Virus record (IMG/VR): IMGVR_UViG_3300030381_000254
Span: 69,982 to 133,981 of that record
DNA length: 64,000 nt
DNA from: a virus
Strand: one strand, 5' to 3'
Positions 12,501 to 59,037 of this stretch are shown here, piece by piece. Made by a program: the position numbers and the translations under genes. The notes beneath the pieces were generated by a model, which worked only from the letters and a program-made list of their open reading frames with translations, searched no databases and was not told the origin of the DNA. Positions within the stretch are counted from its first letter, which is position 1. Every line of letters begins with the position of its first letter.

Positions 12501-15500
12501 TCCTTTTTCAGGAGTCTTTCCTTCATCAACAGTTGTATCACTAATAGCTGTATAAATCTTCTTATCTTCTTTTACGTAGTAAGTAGTACCAACTACTAAT
12601 CTAGAAGTAGGAATTTGATCTTTACTATCTACAAAATGATCAATACCAAATACTTGAACTACTTTTCCAGGAAGTTGTGAATCTGGAATTTTTCCATTAT
12701 CATCAAGGGTAGCAACTCCGTTAAGAGCACCCATCTCAGAACGTTTAACCTGAGCATCATTAGTAACGTTACCTAAACCTACTTGTTCTTTCGTTACTCC
12801 ATGAGGATTATTTTTATCTGAAATATGTTCATCAATTTTTGAATTAACATCATTAAGTTGATTTAATTCAGCAAAGATAGAACCATCCCAACGATACATT
12901 TTATTCCCCAATCCAGAAGTAATATCTACATAGATAACTCCTGTAATAGGCTCATATGGATGTCCTTGTTTATCATTAAAAGTAGTTTCATTAATGTATT
13001 TACCTTCCAATACATTTATAGCTTCCTTAGGTATTTGTGCCTGAACTAATTTTCCATTAGAGTCTAAAGTAGCAATACCATTAGGTTGTGCTAAAGAATC
13101 ATTAATAGCTTTTAATCCACTAGTTAATACATCTAAAGCTTCTTGTGTAGCAGTAGATATAGGTTTATTCAAGTCACTTGTGTTATCAACTTCACTTAAA
13201 CCAATATCTTCTTTATCTAATACAGGATTTTCAGATATCTTATAACCATTAATAGTATAATTATCTGTAGTTTCTTTATTAGAATCAATATTTTGTTTAA
13301 GTTCGTCTTTAACTGCATCTAATGCTGCTTGTTGAGCTTTAGATACTGGTTTATTAACGTCACTTGTATTATCTACATCTCCTAAACCCACTTGAGCTTT
13401 AGTAACTTGATGTGGATTTTCGAAATCTTCTAAATGAGAATTTACTTTATCAGTAGTTTCTTTACCTTTATCTCCAGGATATGCTGTTCCAGCTATTTCT
13501 CCTAAATGTATAGGATTTCCAATTTCTACTAAATCAGTACCATCCCATCTATAAATTATATTAGTATCTCTATCTGAGTATATTACTCCTTTTTCTGGAG
13601 TCTTTCCCTCATCTAGAGATGTATCACTAATAGCTGTATAAATTTTCTTCTCAAGTTTTGCATAATAAGTAGTTCCGGTATCTAATCTAGAAGTAGGAAT
13701 TTGATCTTTACTATCTACAAAATGATCAATACCAAATACTTCATCTACTTGACCTGGTAATTGCCATGTTGGAATTTTTCCATTTATATCAAGAGTAGCG
13801 ACTCCTTCAGCAACTCCCATTTCTGTTCTCTTAACTTGAGCATCATTAGTTACATTTCCAAGACCTATTTGTTCTTTTGTTACTTCATGAGGATTAGATT
13901 TATTATCAATGTGATCTAATATATCTTGCTCTATATCTCCAGTTTGGCAAAGTTTAACAAACGCTGTACCATTCCAACGATATATATTATTATTAGATCC
14001 ATCAGTAATATCTACATAAATTATTCCTAATGCTGGAGTGTATGGAGAATCTGACCTATCATTAAAAGTAGTTTCATTAATATACTTACCTTCTAGTACA
14101 TTAATTGCTTTACTTGGAATTTGAGATTCTACCAATTTTCCATTAGAATCTAGAGTAGCAATTCCATCAGGTTGAGCTAATGAATCATTTAATTTATTAG
14201 CTAGTTCTTTAACTGAATCTAAATCAGATTGTGCTGCTTTAGAATTCAATTCATCTGTTAAACCACTAATATCTGCAATTTCAATTACTACTTCTCCAGA
14301 CTTTCCATTAACAGATTTTACTGCATCTACATTATCTACCTTAGCCCAATTTCCACCGTTATTAATTACCCAATCTCCAGGTTCGAAATTTATACCGAAT
14401 TGAGATCCAGCAATCGAAACAACATAATATTTTCCAGAATTCTCTGGAGAATTATCTGTTAACTCCGGTATATTCTTAGAAGCATCCCAAGTTCCTGAAT
14501 ATCTTACATTTCCTAATACTGAATCAGGTAATTGAGAACTAGGAACTTTTCCAGATTCATCAAGTGTAGCAACTCCTTCTGCTATACCCATTTCAGCTCT
14601 TTTAACCTGAGCATCATTAGTAACATTACCTAATCCTACCTGTTCTTTTGTTACTTGATGAGGATTAGACTTATCTGCAATATGAGCCTCTACTTTAGAA
14701 TCTACTGTATCAATATTTCCTTGTAATTCTTCTTTTGCTACATTTACGGCTTCATCTACTATATCTTTAATCGAAGTATTTTCATCAATACCTTCAGAAA
14801 GAGTATCTAATTTCTTTTTATCTTCCTTAGACATAGTACCATTAGCTTCCTGTGTAGCTGTAGGTAAATTTGTAGTTGCTAATTCAGTAAAATCTTTAGA
14901 AGTTAGATCATAACTCCAACTATTAGAATCAGCAAATATTTCCCCATAGTAAGTATAAGTTCTCCATACTCCTGTAGTATCTAAAAATTTACACTTAACT
15001 CCAGGTACTCTATATTTAGGATCAGCGTAGCTATCTAATTTAGATATAGCTAATTGAATAGTCCACTGATCTTTATTATCTCCTTGTCCTTCTCCTGGGA
15101 AAAGAGACGTAACATTATATACTATATCTGAATGCTCTTGTAATTTCTTCAATGCATCTAACGTAGCAGTAGAAATCGGCTTATCCATATCAGATGTATT
15201 ATCTACATTTCCTAAGCCAACCTGTTCTTTAGTAACATTATGAGGATTTTCAGTATTAGAAGTATGAGCTTCCAAATCTACCTGAGAAGCTTTAGAATCT
15301 AATTCATCTCTTAAATTTGGAATATCTTCAATAACTAATTCTACTATTCCATCTTTACCATTAACAGATTTTACTGCGTCTACGTTATCTACCTTAGACC
15401 AAGATCCATTACTATTAATTACCCAATCTCCTGCGTCAAAATCAAATCCAAATTGAGATCCCGGAACATCAACAATATAGTAATGTCCATTATCTTCTTC

Positions 15501-17675
15501 ATTTCCTTCTACTAGTTCAGGAGTATTTGTGGAAGCGTTCCAAGTACCCATAAACTTAACATTTCCTAATACAGAATCAGGAAGTTGTGAATCTGGTACT
15601 TTTCCATTATTATCAAGGGTAGCAACACCATTAGCAACTCCCATCTCAGAGCGCTTAACTTGAGCATCGTCCGTAACATTTCCAAGGCCAATGTCAGTTT
15701 TATTTAAGACAGGATTTTCAGATATCTTATAACCATTAACAGTATAATTATCTATTACTTCTTTAGTATCTTCTACGATTTCATTAATCTTATCTACTAT
15801 AGAAACGCCTTCTCCTATACCTTCGGAAAGAGTATCTAATTTCTTCTTATCTTCCTTAGACATAGTACCGTTAGCCTCTTGTGTAGCGGTAGGTAAATCT
15901 ACAGTTGCTAATTCAGTAAAATCTTTAGAAGTTAGATCATATTTCCAAGAACTTACGTCAGTAAATACTTCTCCATAGAAAGTATAAGTTCTCCACTTTC
16001 CATCCTCAGTTATTAATTTAATCTTAACTCCTGGAACTTTGTACTTACTATCAATTGTACCACTTAGTCTAGATATTGCGGATTGTAAATTCCATTGATC
16101 TTTATTATCTCCTTGTCCTTCTCCTGGAAAGAGATCAACTATATTAAATAATACTTCAGTATGTGAAATTAATTCATCTAAAGCTTCTTGAGTAGCAGTA
16201 GATATAGGTTTATCCATATCAGAAGTATTATCTACGTTTCCAAGACCAACATCTTCTTTATTTAAGACAGGATTTTCAGATATCTTATAACCATTAACAG
16301 TATAATTATCTATTACTTCTTTAGTATCTTCTACGATTTCATTAATCTTATCTACTATAGAAACACCTTCCTCTATGCCTTCAGAAAGAGTATCGAATTT
16401 CTTCTTATCTTCCTTAGACATAGTACCATTAGCTTCTTGTGTAGCTGTAGGTAAATTTGTTGTAGCTAATTCAATAAAATCTTTAGAAGTTAGATCATAG
16501 TTCCATTTAGATTCATCTAATATTTCGGAAGATTCTCCATAGAAAGTATAAGTTCTCCACTTATCTTCATTAGATAAAAATTTTATTTTAATACCTGCTA
16601 ATCTTTCTTCATCTGATAATAGTGAATCTAATTTAGATATGGCTCTAGTTAAAGTCCATTGATTCTTATTATCTCCCATTCCTTCATTAGGAAAAAGAGT
16701 ATTAATATTATAGAGATATTCTGTATGAGATTGCATTTCATCTAGATCAGACTTATACTCTTCTTTTACTTTATTATCTCCTGCATTAATGGCTTCTTGA
16801 ACCCCGCTTAATTTTAGCCCGTTTTCAGATAAACTTAAAAAATCTTCACTACTTTCGTCTCTAAGTATTCCAATAGTAGGATCATTTTTTGTTCCTTCTA
16901 TAATAATACCCTTTCCTTCTGTAGCGGTGATGCTATGAACTGTATTTTCATTTAATGAATCTATCTGATCTTTTAACTCTTTTCCTTGAGATGCTCCTAA
17001 TACTTGTTCAGATTCACCTCCTTCTAAAGAATTAATTATATCAGTTTTCTTTACATATAATTTTTCAGCATCTTCCTTCTTAAGATACGGCTCTAATTCG
17101 ATACCTAAATCATATTCTCCTAATTTCTCCCAAGCTCTAGATTCAAATCCAGCCTCATCATAGACAGTAGTAAGAATATATTCTATATATTTTTGATTCT
17201 CTCCTTCATTTTCTGTTTTTCTTAAGATATATATCTTATTAAACTTTGCTTCTTTTAAAGGAGGAAGTTCATCAACAAATATAAAAATTTCAGTATCCAA
17301 CGTACAAGAAATGATATTATCTTCTGAAATATTAATTCCTGTACCAGCTGTTAACTTATCTTGTTTTTTCTTTAATTCTTCTTGTAATTGATCTTCGGTA
17401 ACATATTCACCTAAAGAGGATTTCCAACCCTCTTCTGAATGACGATTATCCCAACTAATTAATTTATAATTAGATGCTTCACTAACTACATACCATTCTT
17501 GACCAATTGCATCATCTCCAGTATTATCTCCACTATCAGACAATATACAATCTGGTATTTTATACAAAGCTTCTAGAGATGATACAGTTTTGTGTCCTGA
17601 GATTTCTATAGCTCTCGCAATCCCATAACTTTTAGGATTATTAGACACTAATATATCTGCAAATTTTAATGCCAT
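9549..17675 (-). CDS. Giant tail fibre protein, 2708 aa, highly repetitive
   Basis: Its N-terminus is shared with fibre 5379..8090. There are more than 20 tandem copies of a ~35-aa unit NPHxVTKEQVGLGNVDNTSDxDKPVSxATQ. There are three ~185-aa repeats (…LTSKDFTELATTNLPTATQEANGTMSKEDKKKLDTLSEGI…) with near-identical DNA, and repeated …IYRWDGTDLVEIGNPIHLGE… blocks. It shares the C-terminal module with its neighbours. Confidence 0.7.
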   Translation of the reverse strand: MALKFADILVSNNPKSYGIARAIEISGHKTVSSLEALYKIPDCILSDSGDNTGDDAIGQEWYVVSEASNYKLISWDNRHSEEGWKSSLGEYVTEDQLQEELKKKQDKLTAGTGINISEDNIISCTLDTEIFIFVDELPPLKEAKFNKIYILRKTENEGENQKYIEYILTTVYDEAGFESRAWEKLGEYDLGIELEPYLKKEDAEKLYVKKTDIINSLEGGESEQVLGASQGKELKDQIDSLNENTVHSITATEGKGIIIEGTKNDPTIGILRDESSEDFLSLSENGLKLSGVQEAINAGDNKVKEEYKSDLDEMQSHTEYLYNINTLFPNEGMGDNKNQWTLTRAISKLDSLLSDEERLAGIKIKFLSNEDKWRTYTFYGESSEILDESKWNYDLTSKDFIELATTNLPTATQEANGTMSKEDKKKFDTLSEGIEEGVSIVDKINEIVEDTKEVIDNYTVNGYKISENPVLNKEDVGLGNVDNTSDMDKPISTATQEALDELISHTEVLFNIVDLFPGEGQGDNKDQWNLQSAISRLSGTIDSKYKVPGVKIKLITEDGKWRTYTFYGEVFTDVSSWKYDLTSKDFTELATVDLPTATQEANGTMSKEDKKKLDTLSEGIGEGVSIVDKINEIVEDTKEVIDNYTVNGYKISENPVLNKTDIGLGNVTDDAQVKRSEMGVANGVATLDNNGKVPDSQLPDSVLGNVKFMGTWNASTNTPELVEGNEEDNGHYYIVDVPGSQFGFDFDAGDWVINSNGSWSKVDNVDAVKSVNGKDGIVELVIEDIPNLRDELDSKASQVDLEAHTSNTENPHNVTKEQVGLGNVDNTSDMDKPISTATLDALKKLQEHSDIVYNVTSLFPGEGQGDNKDQWTIQLAISKLDSYADPKYRVPGVKCKFLDTTGVWRTYTYYGEIFADSNSWSYDLTSKDFTELATTNLPTATQEANGTMSKEDKKKLDTLSEGIDENTSIKDIVDEAVNVAKEELQGNIDTVDSKVEAHIADKSNPHQVTKEQVGLGNVTNDAQVKRAEMGIAEGVATLDESGKVPSSQLPDSVLGNVRYSGTWDASKNIPELTDNSPENSGKYYVVSIAGSQFGINFEPGDWVINNGGNWAKVDNVDAVKSVNGKSGEVVIEIADISGLTDELNSKAAQSDLDSVKELANKLNDSLAQPDGIATLDSNGKLVESQIPSKAINVLEGKYINETTFNDRSDSPYTPALGIIYVDITDGSNNNIYRWNGTAFVKLCQTGDIEQDILDHIDNKSNPHEVTKEQIGLGNVTNDAQVKRTEMGVAEGVATLDINGKIPTWQLPGQVDEVFGIDHFVDSKDQIPTSRLDTGTTYYAKLEKKIYTAISDTSLDEGKTPEKGVIYSDRDTNIIYRWDGTDLVEIGNPIHLGEIAGTAYPGDKGKETTDKVNSHLEDFENPHQVTKAQVGLGDVDNTSDVNKPVSKAQQAALDAVKDELKQNIDSNKETTDNYTINGYKISENPVLDKEDIGLSEVDNTSDLNKPISTATQEALDVLTSGLKAINDSLAQPNGIATLDSNGKLVQAQIPKEAINVLEGKYINETTFNDKQGHPYEPITGVIYVDITSGLGNKMYRWDGSIFAELNQLNDVNSKIDEHISDKNNPHGVTKEQVGLGNVTNDAQVKRSEMGALNGVATLDDNGKIPDSQLPGKVVQVFGIDHFVDSKDQIPTSRLVVGTTYYVKEDKKIYTAISDTTVDEGKTPEKGTIYSNRDTNYIYRWDGTDLVEIGNPIHLGETEGTAYEGNKGKATTDKLNEHVANTENPHNVTKAQVGLANVDNTADMDKPISTATQEALDKITSDVESHTTNKSNPHEVTKAQVGLGNVDNTADLDKPVSNATKELINSTKDSLTQTITLHTENKNNPHGVTKEQVGLANVDNTADLNKPVSIAQQAAIDKVKSEILPEVDKVNSSLTAHVSSENNPHKVTKAQIGLGNVDDTSDENKPVSLAQEARISKVESDLTAKITIHTSDKNNPHEVTKAQIGLGDVDNTRDIDKPISTATQRALDELDSRLSESVTTHIADKSNPHQVTKEQVGLSNVTNDAQVKRSEMGVASGVATLDESGKVPSSQLPSFVDDIVEADSLDEFPEVGEIGKIYLAKDTNIIYRWSGSKYVEISSSLALGETSSTAYPGDKGKATTDKLNEHVANTENPHQVTKEQVGLANVDNTSDMDKPVSTATQAAIDKVKEDLEQSIGEGSETLTSHIANKSNPHEVTKEQVGLGNVDNTADKDKPVSTAQSEAISAAKAEVTKSINDHIADVRNPHGVTKEQVGLGNVDNTSDLNKPVSNATREALSALSDSVTQIVNAHAQNYSNPHQVTKAQVGLDRVDNTNDLEKPVSNATQELVNKIKLDLTTTITSQGEILNAHVADKNNPHSVTAFQIGLGNVNNTADMDKPVSTATQIALDKKADLVDGKVPTTQLPDQVIHSLHYRGFWDADINSPKLENDLGNNAQEGDYYIVRGQGVRFGYEFLPYDIIFNAYGTWYRLSGSNQRDEVTRFDITSFTADKYECEIGENATIKFNWEYNGLGEGENPESQNINGNVAEPASRTLSITDVLADTTFVLSAGYRGISASAELQVKFYSKVYVGTSTNNTVSDSELQAMTSFFDNEKNSLPLTKLDCTGGKYIYVAIPKVNATNYTIYANNILVTDVVETSRNVVNASGGKAEYTIYRLSNKYNGILNIEVKLNK
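11700..13700 (-). repeat. Tandem array of ~105-nt (35-aa) NPHxVTKEQVGLGNVDNTSD fibre repeats
   Basis: A recurrent DNA motif recurs, ...cctaaaccaacttg(t/a)(t/g)ctttcgttac(t/c)ccatgaggatt.... More than 20 peptide repeats are visible in the translation. Confidence 0.65.
14640..16750 (-). repeat. Intragenic ~185-codon repeats in the giant fibre gene, three copies
   Basis: The DNA is near-identical at about 16255..16515 and 15700..15960, for example ...tttcagatatcttataaccattaacagtataattatctattacttctttagtatcttctacgatttcattaatcttatctactatagaaac.... A third copy lies around 14790..14960. Confidence 0.7.
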
Positions 17676-21840: not shown

Positions 21841-22332
21841 TTAATCTATTCCTTTAGCTAGCGAATCTACATAGTTATTCCAATATATGTCTGGATTAAC
21901 TCCATCAAATTTTTGATGTCCTTTTACCCATTCATAACTTAGTCTACCTTGTAAACCCTGTTTCATTATTTCTTTATCTATTTCGCTCTTTATTTTAGCA
22001 ATATAAGGTTCTTTAATTCTCCATTTTCCTGTCATCCACTCCTTTACTCCCAAGTAATCCGCATGAATTACTACTTTGTCTAATGGACCCCAAAATTTAG
22101 AAAATTCTCTAAGAGCAAATAATACTCCTACTAACTCAGCACTAGGATTACTACATTTAGATGCTCCAAAATTATCATACATATAATCTTGTTTTAACTC
22201 GTTAGAAAATTTTCCGAGTATAGTTCCCATTCCAGGGCCTGATAAATTTACTATAACTCCTCCAACACCTAAACGTCCATTATTCTGCTTATCTAAATGA
22301 GATCCATCTGTATAAACATCAAATTGTTTCAT
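21841..22332 (-). CDS. rnhA: Ribonuclease H (RNase HI-like)
   Basis: DVYTDGS matches the RNase H motif 1. ELVGVLFALRE and WVKGHQKFDGNPD...NYVDSLAKG resemble the C-terminal catalytic Asp region. Confidence 0.7.
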   Translation of the reverse strand: MKQFDVYTDGSHLDKQNNGRLGVGGVIVNLSGPGMGTILGKFSNELKQDYMYDNFGASKCSNPSAELVGVLFALREFSKFWGPLDKVVIHADYLGVKEWMTGKWRIKEPYIAKIKSEIDKEIMKQGLQGRLSYEWVKGHQKFDGVNPDIYWNNYVDSLAKGID

Positions 22333-22817: not shown

Positions 22818-23083
22818 AATAATGTATATAAGTTTATTAATCCAAGACCACTAAGAATTATAGTATTATTATCCTCTAATATCAAGTATCCTGACTTATC
22901 ACATTGATTTTTATAATCTAGAATATCTAAAAATTCTAATAAATCAGAATTTAAATAAAATGTTATAGATACAATCCCATTATCAAATGCAAATGAACAG
23001 ATAACTGAATATGGGTTTATATCATAGTTACTAAGTCTTTTCTCTATTTCATCTTGAATTTCTATTTCTCTAGGAACTTTCAT
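22814..23083 (-). CDS. Hypothetical protein, 89 aa
   Basis: ORF with overlapping start and stop with its neighbours. Confidence 0.3.
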   Translation of the reverse strand: MKVPREIEIQDEIEKRLSNYDINPYSVICSFAFDNGIVSITFYLNSDLLEFLDILDYKNQCDKSGYLILEDNNTIILSGLGLINLYTLL

Positions 23084-23505
23084 AATATCAACTCAGTAAC
23101 TCTATCATCTAGAATTCTCATGTTATTTAATATACTTGACAATATAGATCTATGACAATTCTTATCATCTGATCCATACCCCATTAAAACTACACCTCTA
23201 GCATCTGATAAATTAGCTAAATAGTTTAATCTATCTATCACACTAACAAAATTAACTTCAGACATTTCTATAATATACTTCTTAGAGAATTCTTCAAAAC
23301 TTATTAAATTATCTCTTCTTTCTCTAAATAATTCATTACTAGGAGCTAATTCTCTCATGTGAATTGCTGTTCCAGAATACTTTCCTATTAAATTTGAATT
23401 TCCTATATTTCTAATAATAAATATTGGCAAATATCCATACTCTGGGAGAACTTTTAATGTCATTGGAGACACAAAAGATGTTTTTACTTGTAATTGGTAA
23501 CTCAT
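23080..23505 (-). CDS. DUF488 (YeaO-like) family protein
   Basis: ...AIHMRELAPSNELFRE...ISFEEFSKKYIIEM... matches the DUF488 signature LAPSxEL...F...W.EF..RY..EL. Confidence 0.45.
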   Translation of the reverse strand: MSYQLQVKTSFVSPMTLKVLPEYGYLPIFIIRNIGNSNLIGKYSGTAIHMRELAPSNELFRERRDNLISFEEFSKKYIIEMSEVNFVSVIDRLNYLANLSDARGVVLMGYGSDDKNCHRSILSSILNNMRILDDRVTELIL

Positions 23506-23991: not shown

Positions 23992-24384
23992 TTATTTAAT
24001 TATAGCTATAGTGCCAAAGATAACTGCTACTAAACCTAAAGCACTAGTCCATACTGTCTTTTTTATCTTTTCTTTTTTTAATGTCTTTTCTAAATTATTA
24101 ATAGATTCAGTATAATATTTATTCTGTTTATCAATTATATTAGTTTGATTAACTATTATAGAATCTCTTTCTGATTTAACTATAGAGTCATTTTTAATAA
24201 TTTTATTTTGAAGATTTATTATTTTTTTAGAATCCTCAAGATCAATGATAATCGAATTTATAGTTTTTAAATTGTTAGGGGAGATTACTATCATGGTATC
24301 TCCTTTATGCTCTATTATCTCTTGAGCCTCTATACTTAATAAAGGCAATAGAGATAACAAGAGACAATAGATTATTTTTTTCAT
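23992..24384 (-). CDS. Membrane protein with N-terminal signal and C-terminal TM anchor, 130 aa
   Basis: MKKIIYCLLLSLLPLLSIEAQE is a signal peptide. The C-terminal WTSALGLVAVIFGTIAIIK is a TM segment, with a coiled-coil middle region. Confidence 0.4.
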   Translation of the reverse strand: MKKIIYCLLLSLLPLLSIEAQEIIEHKGDTMIVISPNNLKTINSIIIDLEDSKKIINLQNKIIKNDSIVKSERDSIIVNQTNIIDKQNKYYTESINNLEKTLKKEKIKKTVWTSALGLVAVIFGTIAIIK

Positions 24385-24399: not shown

Positions 24400-24440
24400 T
24401 AAAAAAAACTTAGAGAACTTGACTAAGTAAGTTCTCTAAG
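24400..24440 (-). terminator. Minus-strand rho-independent terminator
   Basis: An A-run on the plus strand is followed by the hairpin cttagagaacttgactaagtaagttctctaag. On the minus strand this reads as a hairpin plus a T-run. Confidence 0.6.
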
Positions 24441-24446
24441 TTAAAT

Positions 24447-24785
24447 TTAATTATTATACTTACTTTCAAATTCTCTAAGTTTAGATCTTAGAAACTCTAC
24501 TCCTTGTGTAGTAGGTAAATTTCTAATACTATCAACTTTATAGATTCGAGTAGTATCAATCTTTCTAATACTATCTCTGAGATAATCTATAATACTATCT
24601 CTCTTAAGAATTACTCCTTTAAGAGAGTCTATTTTATCTTTTTCTGGTTTAATAACTTCAATAGGTATATTTACAGAAGGGGTCTGAGAATTTTCCTTCT
24701 TAAAAAAGAAATATCCCAGACACCATCCGATCAATATGCTTATAAAAGTAATTAAAATAGCTTTAATTAACTCCTTTACTTTCAT
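24447..24785 (-). CDS. Type II membrane protein with coiled coil, 112 aa
   Basis: The N-terminal TM is LIKAILITFISILIGWCLGYFFF, and the rest is predicted helical. Confidence 0.4.
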   Translation of the reverse strand: MKVKELIKAILITFISILIGWCLGYFFFKKENSQTPSVNIPIEVIKPEKDKIDSLKGVILKRDSIIDYLRDSIRKIDTTRIYKVDSIRNLPTTQGVEFLRSKLREFESKYNN

Positions 24786-25368
24786 TTTCAGTTACGAATA
24801 TACCGATTCGATACTCGATATCATCTTCTTTCTTATAATTAACAAATTGATGAAATATTCTATAATATCCATCATCTTCTCTTTGAATAAGATGCGCATC
24901 CCATCCATGAGTAGTTGTTAATTTATCGATTAAATCTTGTAATCTAGATATTTTAGGAGCGTATTCTTTTAATACTTCTATATCTTGAGAAGGATCCATA
25001 AATTCTTTTAATCTTGCAAGTTCTTTATTGGATTCTTCTTCATTCATTATGTCGCTAGTAAACTCAGTTAATTTATACTGCTTAATATCACTAGTACTTT
25101 TAATAGTATTTAGAAATTGTCCTGCTATTTTCTTACTAGAAATTTCAGCAATAACAGCATTATACTCATCCTTAGAGGATATGATATTTCTCATATCCTC
25201 TAATACTTTCATAGATGTAGTAATGCCTAAACTAACAAATACTCCAAATGGTTTAACAAATGTATTCCCATCAACTGAATTTACATAAAATGTTTTAAAT
25301 GCTGGTTGATAAAACACTTCAACCAGTGAATGAATTTTATCTCTATTTATGTTTCCATTAGTAGCCAT
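24763..25368 (-). CDS. Hypothetical protein, 201 aa
   Basis: ORF only. Confidence 0.35.
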   Translation of the reverse strand: MATNGNINRDKIHSLVEVFYQPAFKTFYVNSVDGNTFVKPFGVFVSLGITTSMKVLEDMRNIISSKDEYNAVIAEISSKKIAGQFLNTIKSTSDIKQYKLTEFTSDIMNEEESNKELARLKEFMDPSQDIEVLKEYAPKISRLQDLIDKLTTTHGWDAHLIQREDDGYYRIFHQFVNYKKEDDIEYRIGIFVTENESKGVN

Positions 25369-27085
25369 AACTATTTTTAAAATTTTTTACTTTGAAATAT
25401 TTAAAATTTTGATTATAATTACTAGAGCCATAATTAAATCCATACATAGTATATTCTGGCATCTTAGACTCTTCTTCATGCCATTCTTCCAAGTAATCTT
25501 CAAAATCTGAGATAAGAATCAATATAGCTTCTGGCCCATAATTATCTCTAAAGTATTTTATACCTCTAGCCATTCTTGTTCCACCTCCCATAGATATACG
25601 AGGAACACCTTTTCTTGGATTAATGTTCTTTATGTGCTCACCTAAACAAGTAGACCAAGATATAATATTGTAAGTAAGACCTCTTCCAAGTCGTTTCATC
25701 TTACTAGCAATAGTATTAAGTATTCTATCTACAAGTCTAGTATCCATAGATCCTGACACATCTATTAAAAATACAATAGTAGGATCATTTGAAATAGTAA
25801 CTTTTCTTCTAATAGTTGGAGTAATAACACTTCTATTAATCCCCCTATTATACATATACATTAAATCTTTTTTTGTATCTACTTTTACTACTCTAGATTT
25901 ATAGTTCAACATAACTTCATCTAGAGCCATATCTACTTCATCAGTATCTGTTACTACTCTAGTAGCATCCGGACCACCTGAATTTCCACATCCAACTCCA
26001 CCACCAGAACGAATTTGTCCTAGCTCTCTCTTTTTATCTGCATCATCTCTAGAATCTGTTCCGTGGTCTCTATGAGTTCCTCCTTTATTATTTCCATTAG
26101 GATCTAACTCATTTGTTCCAGAATCTCTATTCCCTTTATATGGACAATCCCTAGGTGTTTTTTGTCCTTGACCATTACCATTTCCAGAACCAGAAGACAT
26201 ACCCATTTCTTCCATCAAATCAGATAGTCCTTGCATTCCTCCTCCTTGAGAAGAACCTCCATCTCCACTACCTAATGCATTCTGTACATCTTCAGCAGTT
26301 ATATTAGAAGTATCTCCATTTCCTCCATTCTTAATTGATACTAGCATCTTAACAAATTGATCTAAGTGCATAATAATCAACATAAGATATTCTGAATAAG
26401 AACGTTCTTTTGGAAATGGTGTAGGATCTGGTAATGCATTATCTAGATGATATCTCTCTGGAATAATTAATTTAATTTTTGTTTCATTCTCCATTTTCTT
26501 GAGAGCTTCATCTATTTGTTTTTTCACTTCTTCATCATCAGTGTGATCTCTCTGATATCTTAATAATTCTGCTTGATAATCCGGAAGTTTTTCTGAAATA
26601 TCTTTCTCCATTTCTTCAATATCATCTTTAGATAATATCTTAGAATTTACTTCCATATCCATAGCTATATTATGAATACTGTGATTTAATACAGGATCAT
26701 CAATTACTCTTTCAATAAGCTTATCCGCAAAATCAATCCCACACTCTTTATTAATTCTATCTATAAGCTCTCCTCTATGATCTCTGAAAGCATTACAGAT
26801 CTGAACATCTAACTCTTCGTGAATTCCATCCAAATGACCCAAATATATATGACCATATTCATGCATAAGTACTCTAAAATCAGTTCTTGGAATTCCTATT
26901 TCAGAACACACTATCTTATAAGTTACGTATCCAGTAGAATCATCTTTATATTTATAACAATATCCTAATTCTGGATTATCTGGATTAAATGGTTTTTCTG
27001 TATTAACCATTAATAAATTTCCAAATCTGCAATAAGTGTTGTCTACAAATCTTTTTATAAACTCTAATTCTGATTGAGTTCTCAT
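25358..27085 (-). CDS. VWA-domain protein with N-terminal HExxH putative metallopeptidase domain (DUF2201-like), partner of the MoxR ATPase
   Basis: The N-terminal LMHEYGHIYLGH is an HExxHxxxxH motif. The middle has a Gly/Ser/Asn/Asp-rich low-complexity linker. The C-terminal VFLIDVSGSMDTRLVDRILNTIASK is a VWA MIDAS motif (DxSGS). Confidence 0.65.
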   Translation of the reverse strand: MRTQSELEFIKRFVDNTYCRFGNLLMVNTEKPFNPDNPELGYCYKYKDDSTGYVTYKIVCSEIGIPRTDFRVLMHEYGHIYLGHLDGIHEELDVQICNAFRDHRGELIDRINKECGIDFADKLIERVIDDPVLNHSIHNIAMDMEVNSKILSKDDIEEMEKDISEKLPDYQAELLRYQRDHTDDEEVKKQIDEALKKMENETKIKLIIPERYHLDNALPDPTPFPKERSYSEYLMLIIMHLDQFVKMLVSIKNGGNGDTSNITAEDVQNALGSGDGGSSQGGGMQGLSDLMEEMGMSSGSGNGNGQGQKTPRDCPYKGNRDSGTNELDPNGNNKGGTHRDHGTDSRDDADKKRELGQIRSGGGVGCGNSGGPDATRVVTDTDEVDMALDEVMLNYKSRVVKVDTKKDLMYMYNRGINRSVITPTIRRKVTISNDPTIVFLIDVSGSMDTRLVDRILNTIASKMKRLGRGLTYNIISWSTCLGEHIKNINPRKGVPRISMGGGTRMARGIKYFRDNYGPEAILILISDFEDYLEEWHEEESKMPEYTMYGFNYGSSNYNQNFKYFKVKNFKNSYGY

Positions 27086-27189
27086 AATTTTAAATTTTTT
27101 TAAATTGTTCTTAATGAAAAAACCTTAGAGATTCATATAAATCAAACTATATTCTCTCTAAGGTTATATACTATCTATTTAACTATATT

Positions 27190-28716
27190 TTATTTAAAAC
27201 CTCTAATTTCAGGTACTATAGATGCAAGAGCTGGATCTTCCTGTAAAATAATCTTACGGAAAGATTTCAATCTAAATCCAGCTACCTTCAAGTCTTCTTG
27301 AGTAGACTTAAGTGTAGATACTGAATTATCTTTATTTCCATAACCCTTAGTAGAATCCATAACTAATTCTTGCATTGATGTCATAAGGTCTGCTAAAACA
27401 TTCCAATAAGTAACGTAACCAATAAAAGTATCTGAAGATATTTTATCTAAGAACTTATCTGTCGGTGCCATCTTAATCTTGCTAATGCTAGATCCAGAAG
27501 CTTTGCAAATCTTAAACATCTTTTCAATACATTCAGGATCAATAGGACGTTCAATAGAGTTAATTTCCTTATCTCCCTTCAATTCAGAAAGCTTATTAAT
27601 AATAGCCTGCATTTCAGGAATTTGGAACTGAGTCTTTCCATCTACTATGTCATTGAAGAATTTAGTATATTTAGGTAACTTATCATTCTTCATCTTCTCA
27701 ATATCATTAACGATATTAACCATAGTATCATAGAACTCTTTTGAAATTGGAGTTTTAATAACATTCTTAGAGGATTTATCTCTAGAAATACCAATTCCAC
27801 AAAGACCATCAATCATATTTCTATAATTATCACTAGTAATACCAGCTTTTCCAAAACATTTGAAAGAAGCTATAGTTACATCTCTAAGATAATTAAGAGT
27901 TCTGAATGTAACGAATCCATAAAGTTTAGTTTCATTCTCTGCATCTGAATATAATCCTTGAAGATCTGTAATAGCCAAATCTACTACTTTAGATCCAGAA
28001 GTCATAAGAGATTTTGCGGTCATTTTAATACCTCGTTCGATATATTCACCAATCTTATTATACTGATCTTCTGAAATATCTTGTTCTTGAGCATCCAGCT
28101 TTTTCATGGTCTTTCTCAAGTTTTCCATGTAATTATTTGTCTTTCCTTCAGAAGATGCTATAGCTCCTTCATACTTACATAAGAATGTATCCAAATCGTT
28201 ATAATCAGGAGTTATATTAAATATCATAAAACGGTTCATTAATGGAGGAAGCATCTGCATTGAATTAGAAAGATTCTGTGCATAGTTACCTGCAGACACA
28301 ATCAATGTATTTTCAGGCAATTTTTCACTTCCTACCTTACGTTCAAAAACTAAATGTAACAACGCAGACTGAACGTACTCGTTTGCAGTTGTAATTTCAT
28401 CCAAAAATAACAAACTTTTACCACCCTTTTCTGCAATATCACGAATTTCAGTATACCATGATGGGCGAAGATGTTTAGTAGTCTTTGATTCTGGATTATC
28501 ATTATCCACTACATCATATCCCATTACTTCTTCAGCAGTAGTACTATTACCTCTAAGAAGTACTAGATTATATCCTCTAACTTCAGCAAACATTTCTACT
28601 GAAGTTGATTTACCCAAACCTGGATTAGACATAATCAATACAGGTACTTTACTAGTTTCGCTAACTTTTAATGCTGTAAAAATTTGAACATTAATAGAAT
28701 CATTTTTCTTTGCCAT
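27190..28716 (-). CDS. MoxR-like AAA+ ATPase (AAA_5 / CbbQ / GvpN-type)
   Basis: Walker A is SNPGLGKST and Walker B is LLFLDEIT. Sensor-like SAGNYAQN is present. It lies immediately upstream of the VWA protein, the classic MoxR-VWA arrangement. Confidence 0.65.
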   Translation of the reverse strand: MAKKNDSINVQIFTALKVSETSKVPVLIMSNPGLGKSTSVEMFAEVRGYNLVLLRGNSTTAEEVMGYDVVDNDNPESKTTKHLRPSWYTEIRDIAEKGGKSLLFLDEITTANEYVQSALLHLVFERKVGSEKLPENTLIVSAGNYAQNLSNSMQMLPPLMNRFMIFNITPDYNDLDTFLCKYEGAIASSEGKTNNYMENLRKTMKKLDAQEQDISEDQYNKIGEYIERGIKMTAKSLMTSGSKVVDLAITDLQGLYSDAENETKLYGFVTFRTLNYLRDVTIASFKCFGKAGITSDNYRNMIDGLCGIGISRDKSSKNVIKTPISKEFYDTMVNIVNDIEKMKNDKLPKYTKFFNDIVDGKTQFQIPEMQAIINKLSELKGDKEINSIERPIDPECIEKMFKICKASGSSISKIKMAPTDKFLDKISSDTFIGYVTYWNVLADLMTSMQELVMDSTKGYGNKDNSVSTLKSTQEDLKVAGFRLKSFRKIILQEDPALASIVPEIRGFK

Positions 28717-29556: not shown

Positions 29557-30276
29557 TTATTTATTAAGTTTATATAATTCATTAATATCTAAACATTTAT
29601 ATAATACGTTCTCTAACGAGGATGTTAAAGAACAGTGATAGTGACCAAAAAACCATCTACTACATCTTATATTTCTAAAAATATAATCTAAATAATTTCT
29701 ATCTTCTAAAATATTATTATAAATCTCTTCCGTCATGTTACTATCTCTAGTAATCACAGGAAGAAAACTAATTGGAGCCTCATGAGATACTATAATATCT
29801 ACTTTATTAGGAAGATCTCTATATTTCTTTATTGGTCTTTCATCTTCCCACCAAATTCTTTTAGATGATCCATACTTTTCCATCTTAGAGTTATAGTCTA
29901 ATCTAAATTTCATATCAATACTCTGAGCCCCTCCTATTGGATAGATAGTTTTTCCAGATAACTCCATAATTTCATGATCCGGAACATACTTAATTCTTGG
30001 ATAATTATAATAGTCATTATTAAAGTATTCTAATGAATCATGATTTCCTCTTATAGCAAAAATTTCTATATTATTTTTTTCTAATTTTGGTTCTATCTTC
30101 TTATATATATCATCATAATAAGATTTTTTATTAAATCCATCAAAACCAAAATCGCCACATACAATAATATTAGCATCAGCTATATCATATCTATTTATAA
30201 TATTCCATAAATTAGTTTTAATTTCTCCATGCCAATCCGAAGAAAAATATAAATCTCGTTCTTGTCTACTTTTCAT
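29557..30276 (-). CDS. Calcineurin-like metallophosphoesterase (Ser/Thr phosphatase-like)
   Basis: SSDWHGE (D-x-H), VCGDFGFDG (GDxxD) and RGNHDS (GNHD/E) are the metallophosphoesterase motifs I-III. Confidence 0.65.
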   Translation of the reverse strand: MKSRQERDLYFSSDWHGEIKTNLWNIINRYDIADANIIVCGDFGFDGFNKKSYYDDIYKKIEPKLEKNNIEIFAIRGNHDSLEYFNNDYYNYPRIKYVPDHEIMELSGKTIYPIGGAQSIDMKFRLDYNSKMEKYGSSKRIWWEDERPIKKYRDLPNKVDIIVSHEAPISFLPVITRDSNMTEEIYNNILEDRNYLDYIFRNIRCSRWFFGHYHCSLTSSLENVLYKCLDINELYKLNK

Positions 30277-31115
30277 AAAAATGATGTTAATTTAAATTCA
30301 TTAATTACATATGAGATAGAAAAATTGTATAATAAATAATCATATTGAGAATTCCACATTCTTTTTTCTAAGTCTTTTATTAATAACTTAACCGTTTCTA
30401 TATCAGAATTAAAAAATTTATCTAAAAATTCTTTAAATTTAATAGAATCATACCCAGAAAATTCACTAAGTAAATTTTGAATAATATAAAAATTAGATTT
30501 ATTTTGATTTTCTTTATCCTTAGATAAATTCAAAATCTTTTTAAATTTTATATTCAATAAATCCTGATTATTCTGTATTTTTTCAGGAAATTCTATCAAA
30601 GGAAATAATCTTATAGTAGATAAATTAAACTCATCATAAAGATATGAATCCCTAATTGAATCTTTTTTTATCTGAAGACTAGTCTTTTGATGAAATTTTT
30701 TAGAATCAGCTTCTAAAATTAATCCACCACTAAGAATAAAATCTACATATATTACTTTTCGATAAAAAAACTCATCGTCATCAGTTATGTCATTAGCAGT
30801 ACATAAAGATTCCCACTTTTCTCTATTAGAAATCACTATTGGATATTCACTTAAATACTTAATTTTAAATCTATCCAATAAATTTTCTAAAAGAAGTTCA
30901 TTATTATTTTTTTCTCTTTTAGTTAATTGAGAATTCCTCCTAGAAACGATATTGCATTTAATCATGTCTTTATAAACAATTATAGGAATTGGTAAATAAA
31001 AATCATTTGATTTACTAGATACTATATCGAAATTAAACGAGAGTACATCTGAAAGTAATAATATTTCGCTAAAATATTTATTAATTTTTTCTAAATTCTT
31101 TTCATAATTATTCAT
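30273..31115 (-). CDS. Protein with C-terminal DUF559-like (Vsr/PD-(D/E)xK-type) endonuclease domain
   Basis: VIYVDFILSGGLILEADSKKFHQ...KDSIRDSYL... fits the DUF559 pattern D...LxIExDGxxH...D..RDxxL. Confidence 0.4.
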   Translation of the reverse strand: MNNYEKNLEKINKYFSEILLLSDVLSFNFDIVSSKSNDFYLPIPIIVYKDMIKCNIVSRRNSQLTKREKNNNELLLENLLDRFKIKYLSEYPIVISNREKWESLCTANDITDDDEFFYRKVIYVDFILSGGLILEADSKKFHQKTSLQIKKDSIRDSYLYDEFNLSTIRLFPLIEFPEKIQNNQDLLNIKFKKILNLSKDKENQNKSNFYIIQNLLSEFSGYDSIKFKEFLDKFFNSDIETVKLLIKDLEKRMWNSQYDYLLYNFSISYVINEFKLTSFL

Positions 31116-31249: not shown

Positions 31250-32758
31250 ATGATTAGTACTTTTATTTTAATCGGAATTATTGTTCTGATTCTAGTAGTT
31301 ATTGTGTTAGTTTCTTATGTAAAAGCACCTCCAAGTCAAGCTTTTATAATCTCAGGTTTAAACAAAAATCCTAGAGTTCTTATCGGTAAAGGAGGATTTA
31401 GATTGCCATTCTTTGAACGATTAGATAAAATCTATCTAGGACAAATTACTGTAGATATAAAAACGGAAACTTCTGTTCCAACTAATGACTTTATTAATGT
31501 AGATGTAGATGCAGTAGCAAAAATTAGAGTAAAACCTACAGATGAAGGAATTAGATTAGCTGGAAAAAACTTCCTTAATATGAAACCTTTAGATATTGCA
31601 AATCAATTGCAAGATTCTCTTCAAGGAAATATGAGGGAAATTATAGGAACTCTTGAACTTAAAGAACTTAATACTAATAGAGATGGATTCTCTGATCAGG
31701 TAATGGAAAAAGCTGCTCCTGATATGGAAAAATTAGGTATTGAGATATTATCTTGTAATATTCAAAATATTACAGATAGAGAAGGGTTAATAAAAGATTT
31801 AGGTGCTGATAATACTTCTAAAATAAAAAAAGAAGCAGCTATTACTAGAATAACTGCTGAAAAAGAAATTAGCATAAAAAGTAGTCAGGCAAATAAAGAA
31901 GCTAATGATTTTAAAGTAGAATCTGAAATGAGGATAGCTGAAAAAAATAATGAACTATCTCTCAAAAAATCAGACTTAAAACTAAAAGAAGATGCTAAAA
32001 AAGCAGAAGCTGATACCGCTTATGAGATACAAAAACAAGAACAGCAAAAAATAATTAATACTAAATCTGTTGAAGCTGAAATTGAAAAAACGAAGAAACA
32101 ACAGATTCTTAGTCAAGAACAAATTATAATTCGTGAAAATGAATTAAAAGCTGAAATAAATAAAAAGGTAGAAGCTGAAAAATATAAAACCGAAAAAGAA
32201 TCTGAGGCAGAAAAGTATAAAACTGAAACTGAAGCAAAAGCAATTCTGGAACAAAGAAAAAGAAATGCTGAGGCTGAAAAATACGAAACAGAACAAAAAG
32301 CAGAGGCTATGAAAGCTGAAGCAGATGCCATTAGATACAAATTAATCCAAGAGGCAGAAGGTATAAAAGCAAAAGGTGAAGCAGAAGCTTATGCAATTCA
32401 ACAAAAAGGTATAGCTGAAGCAGAAGCTATGAAACAAAAAGCAGAAGCTTATAAATTATATAATGGTGCTGCTGTTGCTGAAATGATGATAAAAATACTT
32501 CCAGAAATGGCAGCAAATATTGCTAAACCTATGGAATCTATTGATTCTGTAAATATCTATGGTACTAATGGTAATGAGGTTTCTGGAGTAACTGGTAATA
32601 TTCCAGTAATAGTTAAACAAGTATTTGATACTATGAGTCAAGCTACTGGAGTAGATATGAAAGAAATACTGAAAACTGGTACAATAGAAGCCGCTACCAC
32701 TAGAAATATTAATATCTCTAAAGATATTGATGAACTAAAGGATAATATTGTAAAATAA
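31250..32758 (+). CDS. Flotillin-like SPFH/Band-7 protein with E/A-rich coiled-coil repeats
   Basis: An N-terminal TM helix is followed by an SPFH-like domain (IISGLNKNPRVLIGKGGFRLPFFERLDKIYLGQITVDIK...). Next come tandem AEAEKYKTE / EAEAMKQKAEAY repeats, as in flotillin EA repeats. The DNA-level tandem repeats lie at about 32160..32460. Confidence 0.65.
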   Translation: MISTFILIGIIVLILVVIVLVSYVKAPPSQAFIISGLNKNPRVLIGKGGFRLPFFERLDKIYLGQITVDIKTETSVPTNDFINVDVDAVAKIRVKPTDEGIRLAGKNFLNMKPLDIANQLQDSLQGNMREIIGTLELKELNTNRDGFSDQVMEKAAPDMEKLGIEILSCNIQNITDREGLIKDLGADNTSKIKKEAAITRITAEKEISIKSSQANKEANDFKVESEMRIAEKNNELSLKKSDLKLKEDAKKAEADTAYEIQKQEQQKIINTKSVEAEIEKTKKQQILSQEQIIIRENELKAEINKKVEAEKYKTEKESEAEKYKTETEAKAILEQRKRNAEAEKYETEQKAEAMKAEADAIRYKLIQEAEGIKAKGEAEAYAIQQKGIAEAEAMKQKAEAYKLYNGAAVAEMMIKILPEMAANIAKPMESIDSVNIYGTNGNEVSGVTGNIPVIVKQVFDTMSQATGVDMKEILKTGTIEAATTRNINISKDIDELKDNIVK

Positions 32759-38812: not shown

Positions 38813-40438
38813 ATGGCAGAAGGAAAAAAAATTATTAAAGGAGCTGAATCACGTGAGAAAGTAATTAGTGGTGTTATCAAGATTGCAGATGCAGTAAAAA
38901 CAACTATTGGTCCCGCAGGAAAACATGTAGTAATTGCTAACAGTATGACTGGTCCTGAAATTTCTCGAGATGGTAGTATTGTTAGTAAATCTATATCTTT
39001 TAAAGATCAAGAAGAAAATATTGGAGCTCAGATTGTTCGTAAAGCAGCTGCAAGTACTGAAGATCAAGCTGGTGATTCAACCTCAACTACAGTAGCTCTC
39101 ATTGAAGAAATGGTGATTAAAGGTCAAAAAGCAATTCGTACTGGAGCTAATGTAAATGAAATTAAAGATGGTATGAAGAAAGCTCAGAAATGGGTTACTA
39201 ACTATATTGCTAAGAATTCTATTAAGGTAGATGGTGATCTTAATAAAATTCATAAGGTAGCAACAATTTCTGCTAACAATGATTCTACTATTGGAGATCT
39301 AATAGTATCATGTATGGAAAAAATCGGAACTGATGCAGAAATTCAAGCAGATTATTCTTCTGGTATTGATACGACTATTGATATTGTTCAAGGGTTTAAA
39401 CTTACTAAAGGATGGTCTAGTCCACAGTATGTAAATAGTCCGTCTGATGCAAAATGTGTAATGGAAAATCCATACATTATAGTAGTTGGAGAGAATATTA
39501 GTAATTTCAATCAGGTAGGTCCTATTATCGAACCTTTATGTAAAAGTGGTCGTCCTTTCTTGATTGTATGTAATGATATGTCTGATCAGGTAAATGGTAT
39601 TTTTATTCTTAATACTCTTCAAGGAAATATTCGTTGTTGTGTAGTTAAAGGAGTAGACTTTGGAGATAATAGAAAAAATATTATGGCGGATTTAGCTGTA
39701 TTTACTGGTGGAACATATTTGGATCCAGAAAATGGAATTTCAATCAATCAGGCTACATTAGAGGATTTTGGTACAGCAAATAAAGTTGTAGTATCTAGAG
39801 ATTCTTGTATTATCTATGAAGGAAATGGAGATAAGAGTATTATTAGTGAAAGAATTGAAACTTTGAAAAATCGAATTTCTGATCCTGACATTAGTGATTA
39901 CGATAAGAAGAAATATAGCTCTAGATTATCTCAATTAGCTGGGGGTATTGGATTAATTAAAGTTGGTTCTGCTAGTGAAATTGAAAGGGCAAATTTAAAA
40001 GCAACCGTTGAAGATGCTATTTTGGCATCTAAGAGTGCTTTGGCAGAAGGTTGTTCTCTCGGATCTGGATATACTTATTTCAAAGCATCACTTGAATTGG
40101 CTAAAGATAAGGAGTTCTGGAAAACATTGGTTGATGATGAGATTGAAGGAGCAAAAATTCTTCAAGAATCATTGCCAATTATTATGAAATCCGTAGTAGA
40201 AAATTGTGGAGTATCTCCTGATGTAGTATTAGAAAAGATTAAAACATCTAAACCTGGTGTAGGTTTCAATGCAAAAACAAAGAAGTATTGTAATCTTGAA
40301 GAAGAAGGTGTTTTAGATTCTTCTAAAGCATTAAGAGTAGCACTCGAAAATAGCGTATCTGCTGCATCTATGATATTATTGATTGATTGTACAGTTGTAG
40401 ATGAAGAAGATAAAAACGAAGATAATTTAATTAAATAA
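38813..40438 (+). CDS. groEL: Chaperonin GroEL-like, 541 aa
   Basis: The N-terminus KIIKGAESREKVISGV...TIGPAGKHVVIA...GDSTSTTVALIEE matches the GroEL ATP-binding motifs. It lacks the C-terminal GGM repeat. Confidence 0.8.
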   Translation: MAEGKKIIKGAESREKVISGVIKIADAVKTTIGPAGKHVVIANSMTGPEISRDGSIVSKSISFKDQEENIGAQIVRKAAASTEDQAGDSTSTTVALIEEMVIKGQKAIRTGANVNEIKDGMKKAQKWVTNYIAKNSIKVDGDLNKIHKVATISANNDSTIGDLIVSCMEKIGTDAEIQADYSSGIDTTIDIVQGFKLTKGWSSPQYVNSPSDAKCVMENPYIIVVGENISNFNQVGPIIEPLCKSGRPFLIVCNDMSDQVNGIFILNTLQGNIRCCVVKGVDFGDNRKNIMADLAVFTGGTYLDPENGISINQATLEDFGTANKVVVSRDSCIIYEGNGDKSIISERIETLKNRISDPDISDYDKKKYSSRLSQLAGGIGLIKVGSASEIERANLKATVEDAILASKSALAEGCSLGSGYTYFKASLELAKDKEFWKTLVDDEIEGAKILQESLPIIMKSVVENCGVSPDVVLEKIKTSKPGVGFNAKTKKYCNLEEEGVLDSSKALRVALENSVSAASMILLIDCTVVDEEDKNEDNLIK

Positions 40439-58686: not shown

Positions 58687-59037
58687 ATGAACGATAATTA
58701 TTATAAAATTACTTTATCATATGAAATTCCATATAACGTCATAGATTCTCAAGATCCTAATGTAATACAGGCTAGAAATATACTTTACGAAAAATTAAAA
58801 GATAGTATTTATCCTAAATATGAGAAATTTTCAGTTAAACTTGTATTATATCAGTTAAAAGATACATTTAATTATTTAGTTACATATGAGGCTTTCTTTA
58901 GATCTTTAGATGGTAAACCTATGGAAGAATATGTAGAGGCTCGTGATCTAAAAGATAGTATTAAGAAAGAATTAGAAGATTTTTTTAATTCAGTAGATTG
59001 CGATTATAAGCAGTTAAATATTAAAACATTATTATAA
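58687..59037 (+). CDS. Hypothetical protein, 116 aa
   Basis: ORF whose stop overlaps the rpoB start. Confidence 0.35.
   Translation: MNDNYYKITLSYEIPYNVIDSQDPNVIQARNILYEKLKDSIYPKYEKFSVKLVLYQLKDTFNYLVTYEAFFRSLDGKPMEEYVEARDLKDSIKKELEDFFNSVDCDYKQLNIKTLL

Follow-up and report, generated by a model that had tools for sequence, protein, structure and literature searches.

Pairs of a MoxR-type AAA+ ATPase and a protein with a von Willebrand factor A (VWA, or vWFA) domain have been described in several groups of viruses. The counterparts in phage N4, gp24 (AAA) and gp25 (vWFA), are listed with the function 'Unknown' (PMC2784036), and a set of 14 core genes counted for N4-like phages includes the vWFA gene (PMC10783043). 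In jumbo phages, Iyer et al. (2021) described a MoxR–vWA pair that has a metallopeptidase at the N-terminus, and proposed for it a role in virion assembly and peptidolytic processing by analogy with Acidianus two-tailed virus (ATV) (PMC7824862). The ATV proteins p618 and p892 are themselves a MoxR–VWA pair to which a chaperone role in tail development has been assigned, with p892 binding p618 and stimulating its ATPase (PMC4124505). Here we analyse a further pair, encoded in a 64,000-nucleotide stretch of viral DNA (IMG/VR record IMGVR_UViG_3300030381_000254, positions 69,982 to 133,981; this whole stretch is 'the window' below). It comprises two verified minus-strand open reading frames (ORFs), located exactly where an earlier note made from the sequence alone had placed them: a 508-aa ATPase gene (27190..28716(-)) and, after a 104-nt gap on the same strand, a 575-aa gene (25358..27085(-)) for a zincin-like domain, a low-complexity linker and a VWA domain, hereafter the adaptor. 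The pair is a divergent copy of a widespread phage module of the N4 gp24/gp25 type (PHROG 1297 plus PHROG 1314). What is specific to the window lineage (an insert, conserved linker islands, an extended ATPase, a downstream gene that we call p201, and a stem-loop) is modest and no new kind of system.

The MoxR–(zincin-VWA) pair is among the most widespread phage gene pairs without an assigned function. The module in N4-like phages and the MoxR–metallopeptidase-vWA pair of jumbo phages were already known, and the window copy is a very divergent addition to them; it extends the module to a large clade of uncultivated jumbo phages from the gut, whose version standard Pfam models miss. A tblastn search with the ATPase found matches in 665 of 50,697 phage records (the set used for all phage-genome searches below), including N4-like Schitoviridae, Vequintavirinae, the cyanophage S-TIM5 group, Vibrio phages of ~190 kb and Bacillus phage G. 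In the N4-like phages inbricus, phiCB2047-B and QDWS595 the ATPase gene is followed by zero or one small ORF and then by a gp25-like gene, confirmed as DUF2201_N + DUF2201 in inbricus and assigned by RefSeq label in the other two, and in cyanophage S-TIM54 a DUF2201_N + DUF2201 gene comes directly after a MoxR-like ATPase. No DUF2201 gene was found beside the ATPase in Cronobacter phage GAP31, Vibrio phages phiKT1024 and VBP47, or Bacillus phage G. A human-gut contig deposited as 'Bacteriophage sp.' (MT835968.1; L004, 3384..9650) encodes an AAA_5 ATPase and then a 609-aa protein with two DUF2201_N domains and DUF2201; this contig is otherwise bacterial-looking (transketolase-like, glycerol kinase-like), and so may not be a phage.

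The window pair has the same gene order as N4 gp24/gp25, namely ATPase, short gap or small ORF, and zincin–VWA protein. N4-like ATPases are 24-36% identical to the window core over aa ~11-200 and have its catalytic residues, and N4-like adaptors share with that of the window the motifs HExxHxxxxH and NxAxDxxVN, a Gly/Pro-rich linker and a VWA domain with a metal ion-dependent adhesion site (MIDAS). The window proteins are, however, longer. The adaptor has 575 aa versus about 385 aa in N4-like phages, with an extra two-helix insert of ~45 aa between the zincin motifs and a low-complexity linker of ~125 aa, and the ATPase has 508 aa versus about 340-400 aa, with an extra C-terminal extension of 330 aa. 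The window lineage also has the conserved downstream gene p201 in addition, and its adaptor, unlike those of N4-like phages, is not detected by PF13203 or PF09967.

A long format in a jumbo-phage setting is likewise found in Staphylococcus jumbo phage DC4 (UFVDC4_00011/00012). Its ATPase has 514 aa (PHROG 1297 at 1.5e-41), and its adaptor of 641 aa has HEVIHVAHGH, a low-complexity linker and DUF2201 (PF09967 7.7e-8; PHROG 1314 2.3e-34). In pairwise BLASTP the DC4 proteins resemble those of the window only marginally (E 0.011 and 2e-8, short stretches), and the DC4 ATPase differs in build, its Walker A and Walker B being separated by an insert. Liquid chromatography–mass spectrometry of purified DC4 virions detected this ATPase homologue, with the authors' caution that confirmation is needed (PMC10638138). 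ATV p618 (MoxR) and p892 (VWA) resemble the window pair in that a virus encodes a MoxR ATPase together with a VWA protein, and the window adaptor model weakly matches ATV ORF892 (E 0.011, BFVD); ATV is, however, an archaeal virus, and its VWA partner is without a peptidase domain (PMC7824862). Moreover, p618 is abundant in the ATV virion, as one of its major components, and does its work in tail growth outside the cell. Among cellular systems, RavA/ViaA, CbbQ/CbbO, NorQ/NorD, CoxD/CoxE and Midasin/Rea1 likewise join an AAA_5/MoxR ring ATPase to a MIDAS VWA protein, but there the VWA partner lacks a zincin domain, and the clients are enzymes of the cell or pre-ribosomes; no such client genes lie nearby in the window.

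The ATPase and the zincin–VWA adaptor

The 508-aa protein is, from its sequence, a MoxR/AAA_5-type AAA+ ATPase. Pfam AAA_5 (PF07728) matches it at 2.1e-6, with 28.3 bits against a cut-off of 22, and covers positions 2-139 of the 139 in the profile with aa 26-163; this bears out the MoxR-type identity proposed in the earlier note. PHROG 1297 ('ATPase') matches aa 11-175 at 3e-31. Within this AAA+ core (28192..28686(-)) are Walker A (28603..28629(-); GLGKST, aa 33-38) and Walker B (28396..28413(-); LFLDE, aa 103-107), both as previously read, together with the sensor-1 residue N144 (28285..28287(-)) and the Arg finger R162 (28231..28233(-)), the arginine typical of MoxR proteins (motif xxLxxRF), here within LMNRF. 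Residues G33, G35, K36, D106, E107, R126, N144 and R162 are invariant in 21/21 aligned sequences, which comprise 16 jumbo-phage homologues and five ATPases from N4-like phages, a cyanophage and the gut contig. Searched against the PDB, a profile of the ATPase finds Midasin/Rea1 best (5e-25, 4-5 AAA modules) and then RavA (1e-5), with other AAA+ families weaker; a sequence search of the PDB with the single ATPase sequence gave no match. Midasin and RavA both act together with MIDAS/VWA partners. Source databases name the ATPase homologues 'MoxR-like ATPase'. The C-terminal extension (aa 181-508, ~330 residues, 27193..28176(-)) is conserved within the jumbo-phage clade of the window, to which its conservation is confined, and had no tblastn match in the phage records at E<=1.

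The adaptor contains a single HExxH, at aa 75-79 inside VLMHEYGHIYLGH, and this forms part of HEYGHIYLGH (aa 75-84, 26834..26863(-)). A second motif of the form NxAxDxxVN follows as NIAMDMEVN (aa 139-147, 26645..26671(-)), and between the two lies the clade-specific two-helix insert (aa 88-131, 26693..26824(-)). Among 22 homologues of 64-93% identity, H75, E76, H79, H84, H89, E90, N139, A141, D143 and N147 are invariant, and HExxH together with the N, D and N of NxAxDxxVN is invariant also in 28 relatives of only 20-38% identity. The protein had been described as starting with MHEYGH, but the Met in question is residue 74, and the 73 residues that precede it are conserved (L7, K11, Y18, G41-K45 and Y56 are invariant in the 22 homologues) and are modelled as a helix and the three-stranded sheet of a zincin fold.

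The AlphaFold model of the N-terminal domain (aa 1-258, 26312..27085(-)) has a predicted local distance difference test score (pLDDT) of 84.7 and a predicted template-modelling score of 0.81, with the order helix, three strands, HExxH helix and helical bundle. The model thus has a mixed beta-sheet, an active-site helix bearing HExxH and a helical lower subdomain, as expected of a zincin, and its closest solved folds are the regulatory zincins CapP, of a cyclic oligonucleotide-based antiphage signalling system (CBASS), and IrrE/PprI. Foldseek matches in BFVD were weak (E>=0.014) and enriched in SprT-like and IrrE-like proteins. Judged by this model, the domain is zincin-like and metallopeptidase-like; the outcome that the earlier note had set against its own proposal, a non-peptidase bundle with unconserved ligands, is not what the model and the invariant ligands indicate. 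The same 258 residues had no Pfam match even at E<=10.

The linker (aa 259-378, 25952..26311(-)) is rich in Gly, Ser, Asn and Asp and hypervariable in length in the alignment. A Gly/Ser/Asn/Asp stretch of ~120 aa had been noted here, in agreement with our count: aa 254-378 (125 aa) consist to 64% of G/S/N/D/Q/T, versus 28% in the N-domain. Residues 298-378 are modelled as disordered (pLDDT <50). Within the linker, aa 340-376 (25958..26068(-)) form a conserved island with the pattern DH..DSRD.AD.KRELG.I.S.GG.GCG.SG; further small conserved islands read GGNGDTS, GMQ.L.DLM..MGM and PYKG.R.

The C-terminal VWA domain (aa 424-551, 25433..25816(-)), also anticipated in the earlier note, has a complete MIDAS made up of DxSxS (DVSGS, aa 442-446, 25748..25762(-)), T503 (25577..25579(-)) and D527 (25505..25507(-)), and all five residues (D442, S444, S446, T503, D527) are invariant in the 22 homologues. 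Pfam VWA_CoxE matches aa 424-530 at 9.6e-9 (35.4 bits, cut-off 26.4), and VWA_2 and VWA also match. The full-length model has 22 BFVD matches at E<=1e-3, to full-length viral VWFA/VWA-like proteins that include a 641-aa protein, a protein of Bacillus phage PBS1 and one of Klebsiella phage vB_KpP_FBKp27. DNA and tblastn searches of the phage records with the whole protein, the N-domain alone or the VWA part alone returned nothing even at E<=1, and its profile gave only marginal integrin I-domain matches (E~0.1) among PDB sequences. Neither adaptor nor ATPase had a meaningful match in NCBIfam or PADLOC. Both genes are real, since hundreds of homologues keep the invariant motifs, and a chance ORF or artefact is thereby ruled out.

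Kinship with DUF2201 and PHROG 1314

The earlier note had likened the adaptor to the DUF2201 family, and this holds, if indirectly: the kinship is supported through PHROG 1314 and distant relatives, while a direct match to either Pfam model is not found. The window adaptor matches PHROG 1314 (2.1e-10, aa 311-530) as the ATPase matches PHROG 1297, and the two genes are adjacent and co-oriented. For three distant relatives, a single alignment to PHROG 1314 takes in the HExxH helix and all that follows it until the VWA domain ends (P0305, aa 67-481, 2.8e-19; P0312, 3.2e-12; P0342, 6.9e-19), the alignments beginning at profile positions 67-72, which correspond to HExxH. Distant full-length members have a common layout of HE[YF]GH....H, N[IY]AMD.EVNS, a low-complexity linker, YNRG and DVSGS...GGT...SDFED. 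Of 28 distant family members, 18 match VWA_CoxE and 11 match PF09967 (best 2.4e-7), while none matches PF13203 at E<=0.01; the distant family member P0330 had no match in the phage records.

PHROG 1314 is described as 'HNH endonuclease', the product name that RefSeq, too, gives the gp25-like gene in N4-like phages (in our loci, L001 6259..7416, L009 4395..5555 and L011 3993..5156). The gp25-like gene of Pseudomonas phage inbricus (gp69) matches PF13203 at 6e-54 and PF09967 at 2.2e-36 and has no HNH domain, and the name looks like a propagated mis-annotation. Because the RefSeq label is common to both, we equate PHROG 1314 with the DUF2201_N + DUF2201 family, N4 gp25 included. The motifs point the same way: HExxHxxxxH followed by NxAxDxx[IV]N is common to the window adaptor, inbricus gp69, the S-TIM54 protein and the gut-contig protein, bona fide DUF2201_N sequences reading HELWHVARMH...NYACDIWIN, HETLHMALCH...NIAADIVVN and HEYLHAGLQH...NIACDYVIN.

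Direct comparisons were less favourable. PF13203 (DUF2201_N) did not match the whole adaptor or the isolated N-domain at E<=10, nor did PF09967 (DUF2201) match the window adaptor. The two motifs are separated by 54 residues in the window adaptor, versus about 13 in bona fide DUF2201_N. When a profile of the N-domain (34-sequence alignment) was compared by hhalign with one built from eight bona fide DUF2201_N sequences, the unedited profiles reached a probability of 11% (P 2.7e-3), with the HExxH helix alone aligned, and against single DUF2201_N sequences the N-domain profile reached 4-5%. Removal of the insert (aa 88-131) raised the probability to 87-89% (P 3-4e-6) with both motifs aligned; as the deletion was made post hoc, we take this as supporting evidence and not as proof. 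A homology search begun from the S-TIM54 DUF2201 protein returned close relatives alone (77-100% identity) and so added little diversity to the target profile. The N-domain family is narrow as judged by sequence, an exhaustive profile search of 1.84 billion proteins having found only 68 representatives at E<=1e-3. Taken through its distant relatives, the relationship of the window adaptor to the DUF2201_N + DUF2201 family is nevertheless supported.

A conserved block and its possible roles

Directly after the adaptor gene in related loci comes p201, a conserved protein of 191-201 aa (24763..25368(-) in the window), the start of which overlaps the adaptor stop by 11 nt. It occupies this position in 5/5 related loci (L007, L008, L013, L014 and L015), in which adaptor identity falls from 78% to about 33%. 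The p201 copies are 50-73% identical in alignment, and hhalign against the copy in L015, where the VWA protein is about 33% identical, gave a probability of 99.5%. No family match was found for p201 in Pfam, PHROG and further library scans. All five loci keep the order ATPase, adaptor, p201, ..., DUF488, ..., RNase H, while the upstream phosphoesterase, coiled-coil and nuclease-like genes vary among them. The description of the surroundings as an 'accessory' cluster is thus unfit for the pair itself, because ATPase, adaptor and p201 form a conserved syntenic block that persists to about 33% identity. In the most distant member (L016, a 4.4-kb contig) the 488-aa and 179-aa neighbours were not detectably related to the ATPase or p201, and so the pairing is unconfirmed at that distance.

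We hypothesize that the module uses ATP to capture, remodel and cleave a protein in phage assembly, as a chaperone-protease, and regard this as somewhat more probable than its negation. The identity of the parts and their conservation come from the comparisons above; the individual steps we infer from MoxR–VWA biology (RavA/ViaA, CbbQ/CbbO, Midasin, ATV p618/p892). The ATPase would form a hexameric ring, like RavA, CbbQ and Midasin, onto which the adaptor would dock. In Midasin, the MIDAS grips an acidic residue of the substrate while the ring pulls. The metal-bound MIDAS of the VWA domain might similarly capture an acidic residue on a target protein, ATP hydrolysis would pull on or remodel that target, and the HExxH domain, tethered on its long flexible linker, would cleave it. 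As for p201, translationally coupled to the adaptor, it may act as a third subunit or else be what the complex cleaves. The survival of HExxHxxxxH, NxAxDxxVN, the MIDAS and the ATPase catalytic residues through extreme divergence argues that proteolysis and MIDAS binding are both functionally required. As the module is a conserved core block and no variable accessory, the target would most likely be a phage protein dependent on help in its assembly or on maturation by proteolysis, for example in the virion or another large phage complex; core-gene status and deep synteny favour such a phage-internal client over a host-range accessory role.

Two points weigh against this assembly role. In N4-like phages the pair lies outside the structural module, among the genes for RNA polymerase 2 (RNAP2) and nucleotide metabolism (dCTP deaminase). 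To our knowledge, moreover, N4 gp24 and gp25 have not been reported as virion proteins, which fits an intracellular role and not specifically virion maturation. The place of the pair among RNA polymerase and nucleotide-metabolism genes keeps alive a host-directed or regulatory protease role, in which the pair, in the early or middle phase of infection, would capture and cleave a host protein such as a regulator, a stress protein or a defence factor. The closest solved folds of the N-domain, CapP and IrrE/PprI, cleave specific cellular proteins, and the upstream neighbours in the window are a phosphoesterase and a nuclease-like gene. Those neighbours are not conserved with the pair, however, and no PADLOC or other defence-related family was matched. 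Known anti-defence genes are typically patchy and variable, whereas this pair belongs to a deeply conserved syntenic block in its jumbo-phage lineage and its vWFA gene is a core gene of N4-like phages (PMC10783043). Host takeover or anti-defence is, all told, unlikely.

The domain composition bears on a different alternative, that the pair is a non-proteolytic chaperone for metal or cofactor insertion or for complex remodelling, like CoxD/CoxE, NorQ/NorD, CbbQ/CbbO and RavA/ViaA, with the HExxH domain serving to bind metal or to dock. VWA_CoxE is the best Pfam match of the VWA domain, above threshold, RavA and Midasin are the closest solved ATPases, and a phage GroEL is encoded in the window, which suggests that the phage invests in folding helpers. 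In bacterial MoxR–vWA systems, too, peptidase domains fused to vWA are often without catalytic activity (PMC7159879). A peptidase domain that has become inactive has usually lost its catalytic Glu, however, and here that Glu and all three His are invariant down to 20% identity. No candidate metalloenzyme client, CO-dehydrogenase or other, occurs in the conserved block. We consider this alternative rather unlikely.

It would be highly improbable, lastly, that the phage carries the pair for defence or superinfection exclusion, in the manner of the MoxR–vWA 'ternary conflict systems'. Such systems include a third component (VMAP, beta-propeller or FtsH) and effector domains (Kaur et al. 2020, PMC7159879). 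A sub-threshold match to PF20030 bpMoxR (16.2 bits, cut-off 27) and the precomputed bpMoxR Pfam label on some homologues would fit, but Pfam searches found no VMAP, beta-propeller or FtsH component around the window pair or the five related loci, PADLOC gave no match at meaningful E-values, and in lytic phage genomes the module behaves like part of the conserved core. The chaperone-protease role in phage assembly is therefore the one we prefer among these.

Stem-loops, neighbouring genes and source genome

The 104-nt gap between ATPase and adaptor holds a predicted stem-loop (27121..27165(-)) with a perfect 11-bp stem, AACCUUAGAGA/UCUCUAAGGUU, followed by U5; its minimum free energy is -19.4 kcal/mol (z -3.06). 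A second stem-loop, followed by T8 and with a terminator-like score (24407..24442), closes the string of adaptor, p201 and the next gene, p112, and the two stem-loops thus bracket that string. Both contain the stem CTTAGAGA/TCTCTAAG; the number of such pairs expected by chance is 0.00. At the ATPase/adaptor junction the same stem is present in L007 and L008 and a different one in L014, while L013 has no gap and no stem. The intergenic stem-loop may be a terminator or attenuator. A scan for sigma-70 promoters showed no enrichment over shuffles (53 observed, 53.5 expected).

It is tempting to extend the chaperone-protease model to a three-gene machine in this lineage, in which p201 joins the long ATPase and the zincin–linker–VWA protein, and linker islands and stem-loop have roles of their own. 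The islands would then be a tethered handle or pseudo-substrate that the MoxR ring threads to turn the peptidase on, and the stem-loop between ATPase and adaptor would set an excess of ring subunits over adaptor. If true, this would be an ATP-gated, MIDAS-targeted site-specific protease of a type so far uncharacterised in any virus; we consider the extension quite improbable.

The gene p112 (24447..24785(-)) overlaps p201 by 23 nt, and the small protein p130 (23992..24384(-)) is encoded after it. By eye both have membrane-like hydrophobic segments, at the N-terminus of p112 and at the N-terminus (signal-like) and C-terminus of p130, and three relatives have a 111-aa gene at the position of p112. 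Further downstream are genes for a DUF488 protein (DUF488-N3a, 4.4e-13; 23080..23505(-)) and RNase H (2.9e-7; 21841..22332(-)), which keep their synteny with ATPase, adaptor and p201 in every longer related locus.

On the upstream side the earlier note had reported three flanking genes, and had described the cluster as co-oriented, which it is, all on the minus strand. The calcineurin-like phosphoesterase is borne out (Metallophos, 6.4e-13). A Metallophos gene is upstream of the pair also in L007 and L008 and not in L013, L014 or L015; the pair on the gut contig is flanked by four calcineurin-like phosphoesterase-like genes, two of them Pfam-confirmed. The 243-aa protein is there as well, but its coiled-coil-type matches are weak and sub-threshold, so that its 'coiled-coil' label stands only in part. 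For the 'DUF559-like nuclease' (280 aa, 30273..31115(-)) no match was obtained in Pfam (even at E<=10), PHROG, NCBIfam or PADLOC, and the name was not upheld. Its stretch YVDFILSGGLILEADSKKFH...IRDSYLYDEFNLSTIRLFP resembles the Vsr/DUF559 endonuclease core by eye, a motif resemblance alone, and in L014 a nearby 249-aa gene has a weak precomputed DUF559 match. Just upstream of the cluster, on the opposite strand, is a gene for a 502-aa protein with SPFH/Band 7 and flotillin domains (31250..32758(+); Band_7 1.9e-22, Flot 2e-9), which had no PHROG match.

The source lineage is an uncultivated gut jumbo phage of ~340-400 kb. Metagenomic contigs of up to 340-398 kb carry homologues of both window proteins, and the uncultivated clade to which the window belongs is low in G+C (~28%), the window itself being AT-rich with 23-33% G+C in 2-kb steps. 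The window also codes for tail fibres, adjoined by a giant ORF of 2708 aa (9549..17675(-)), for GroEL (38813..40438(+); PHROG 5725 at 2.9e-121) and for a multisubunit RNA polymerase beta-like protein (59037..62225(+)). The nearest known relatives of the last, at 22-26% identity, are found in jumbo phages of Staphylococcus (DC4, PALS2, S6) and Bacillus (AR9, PBS1).

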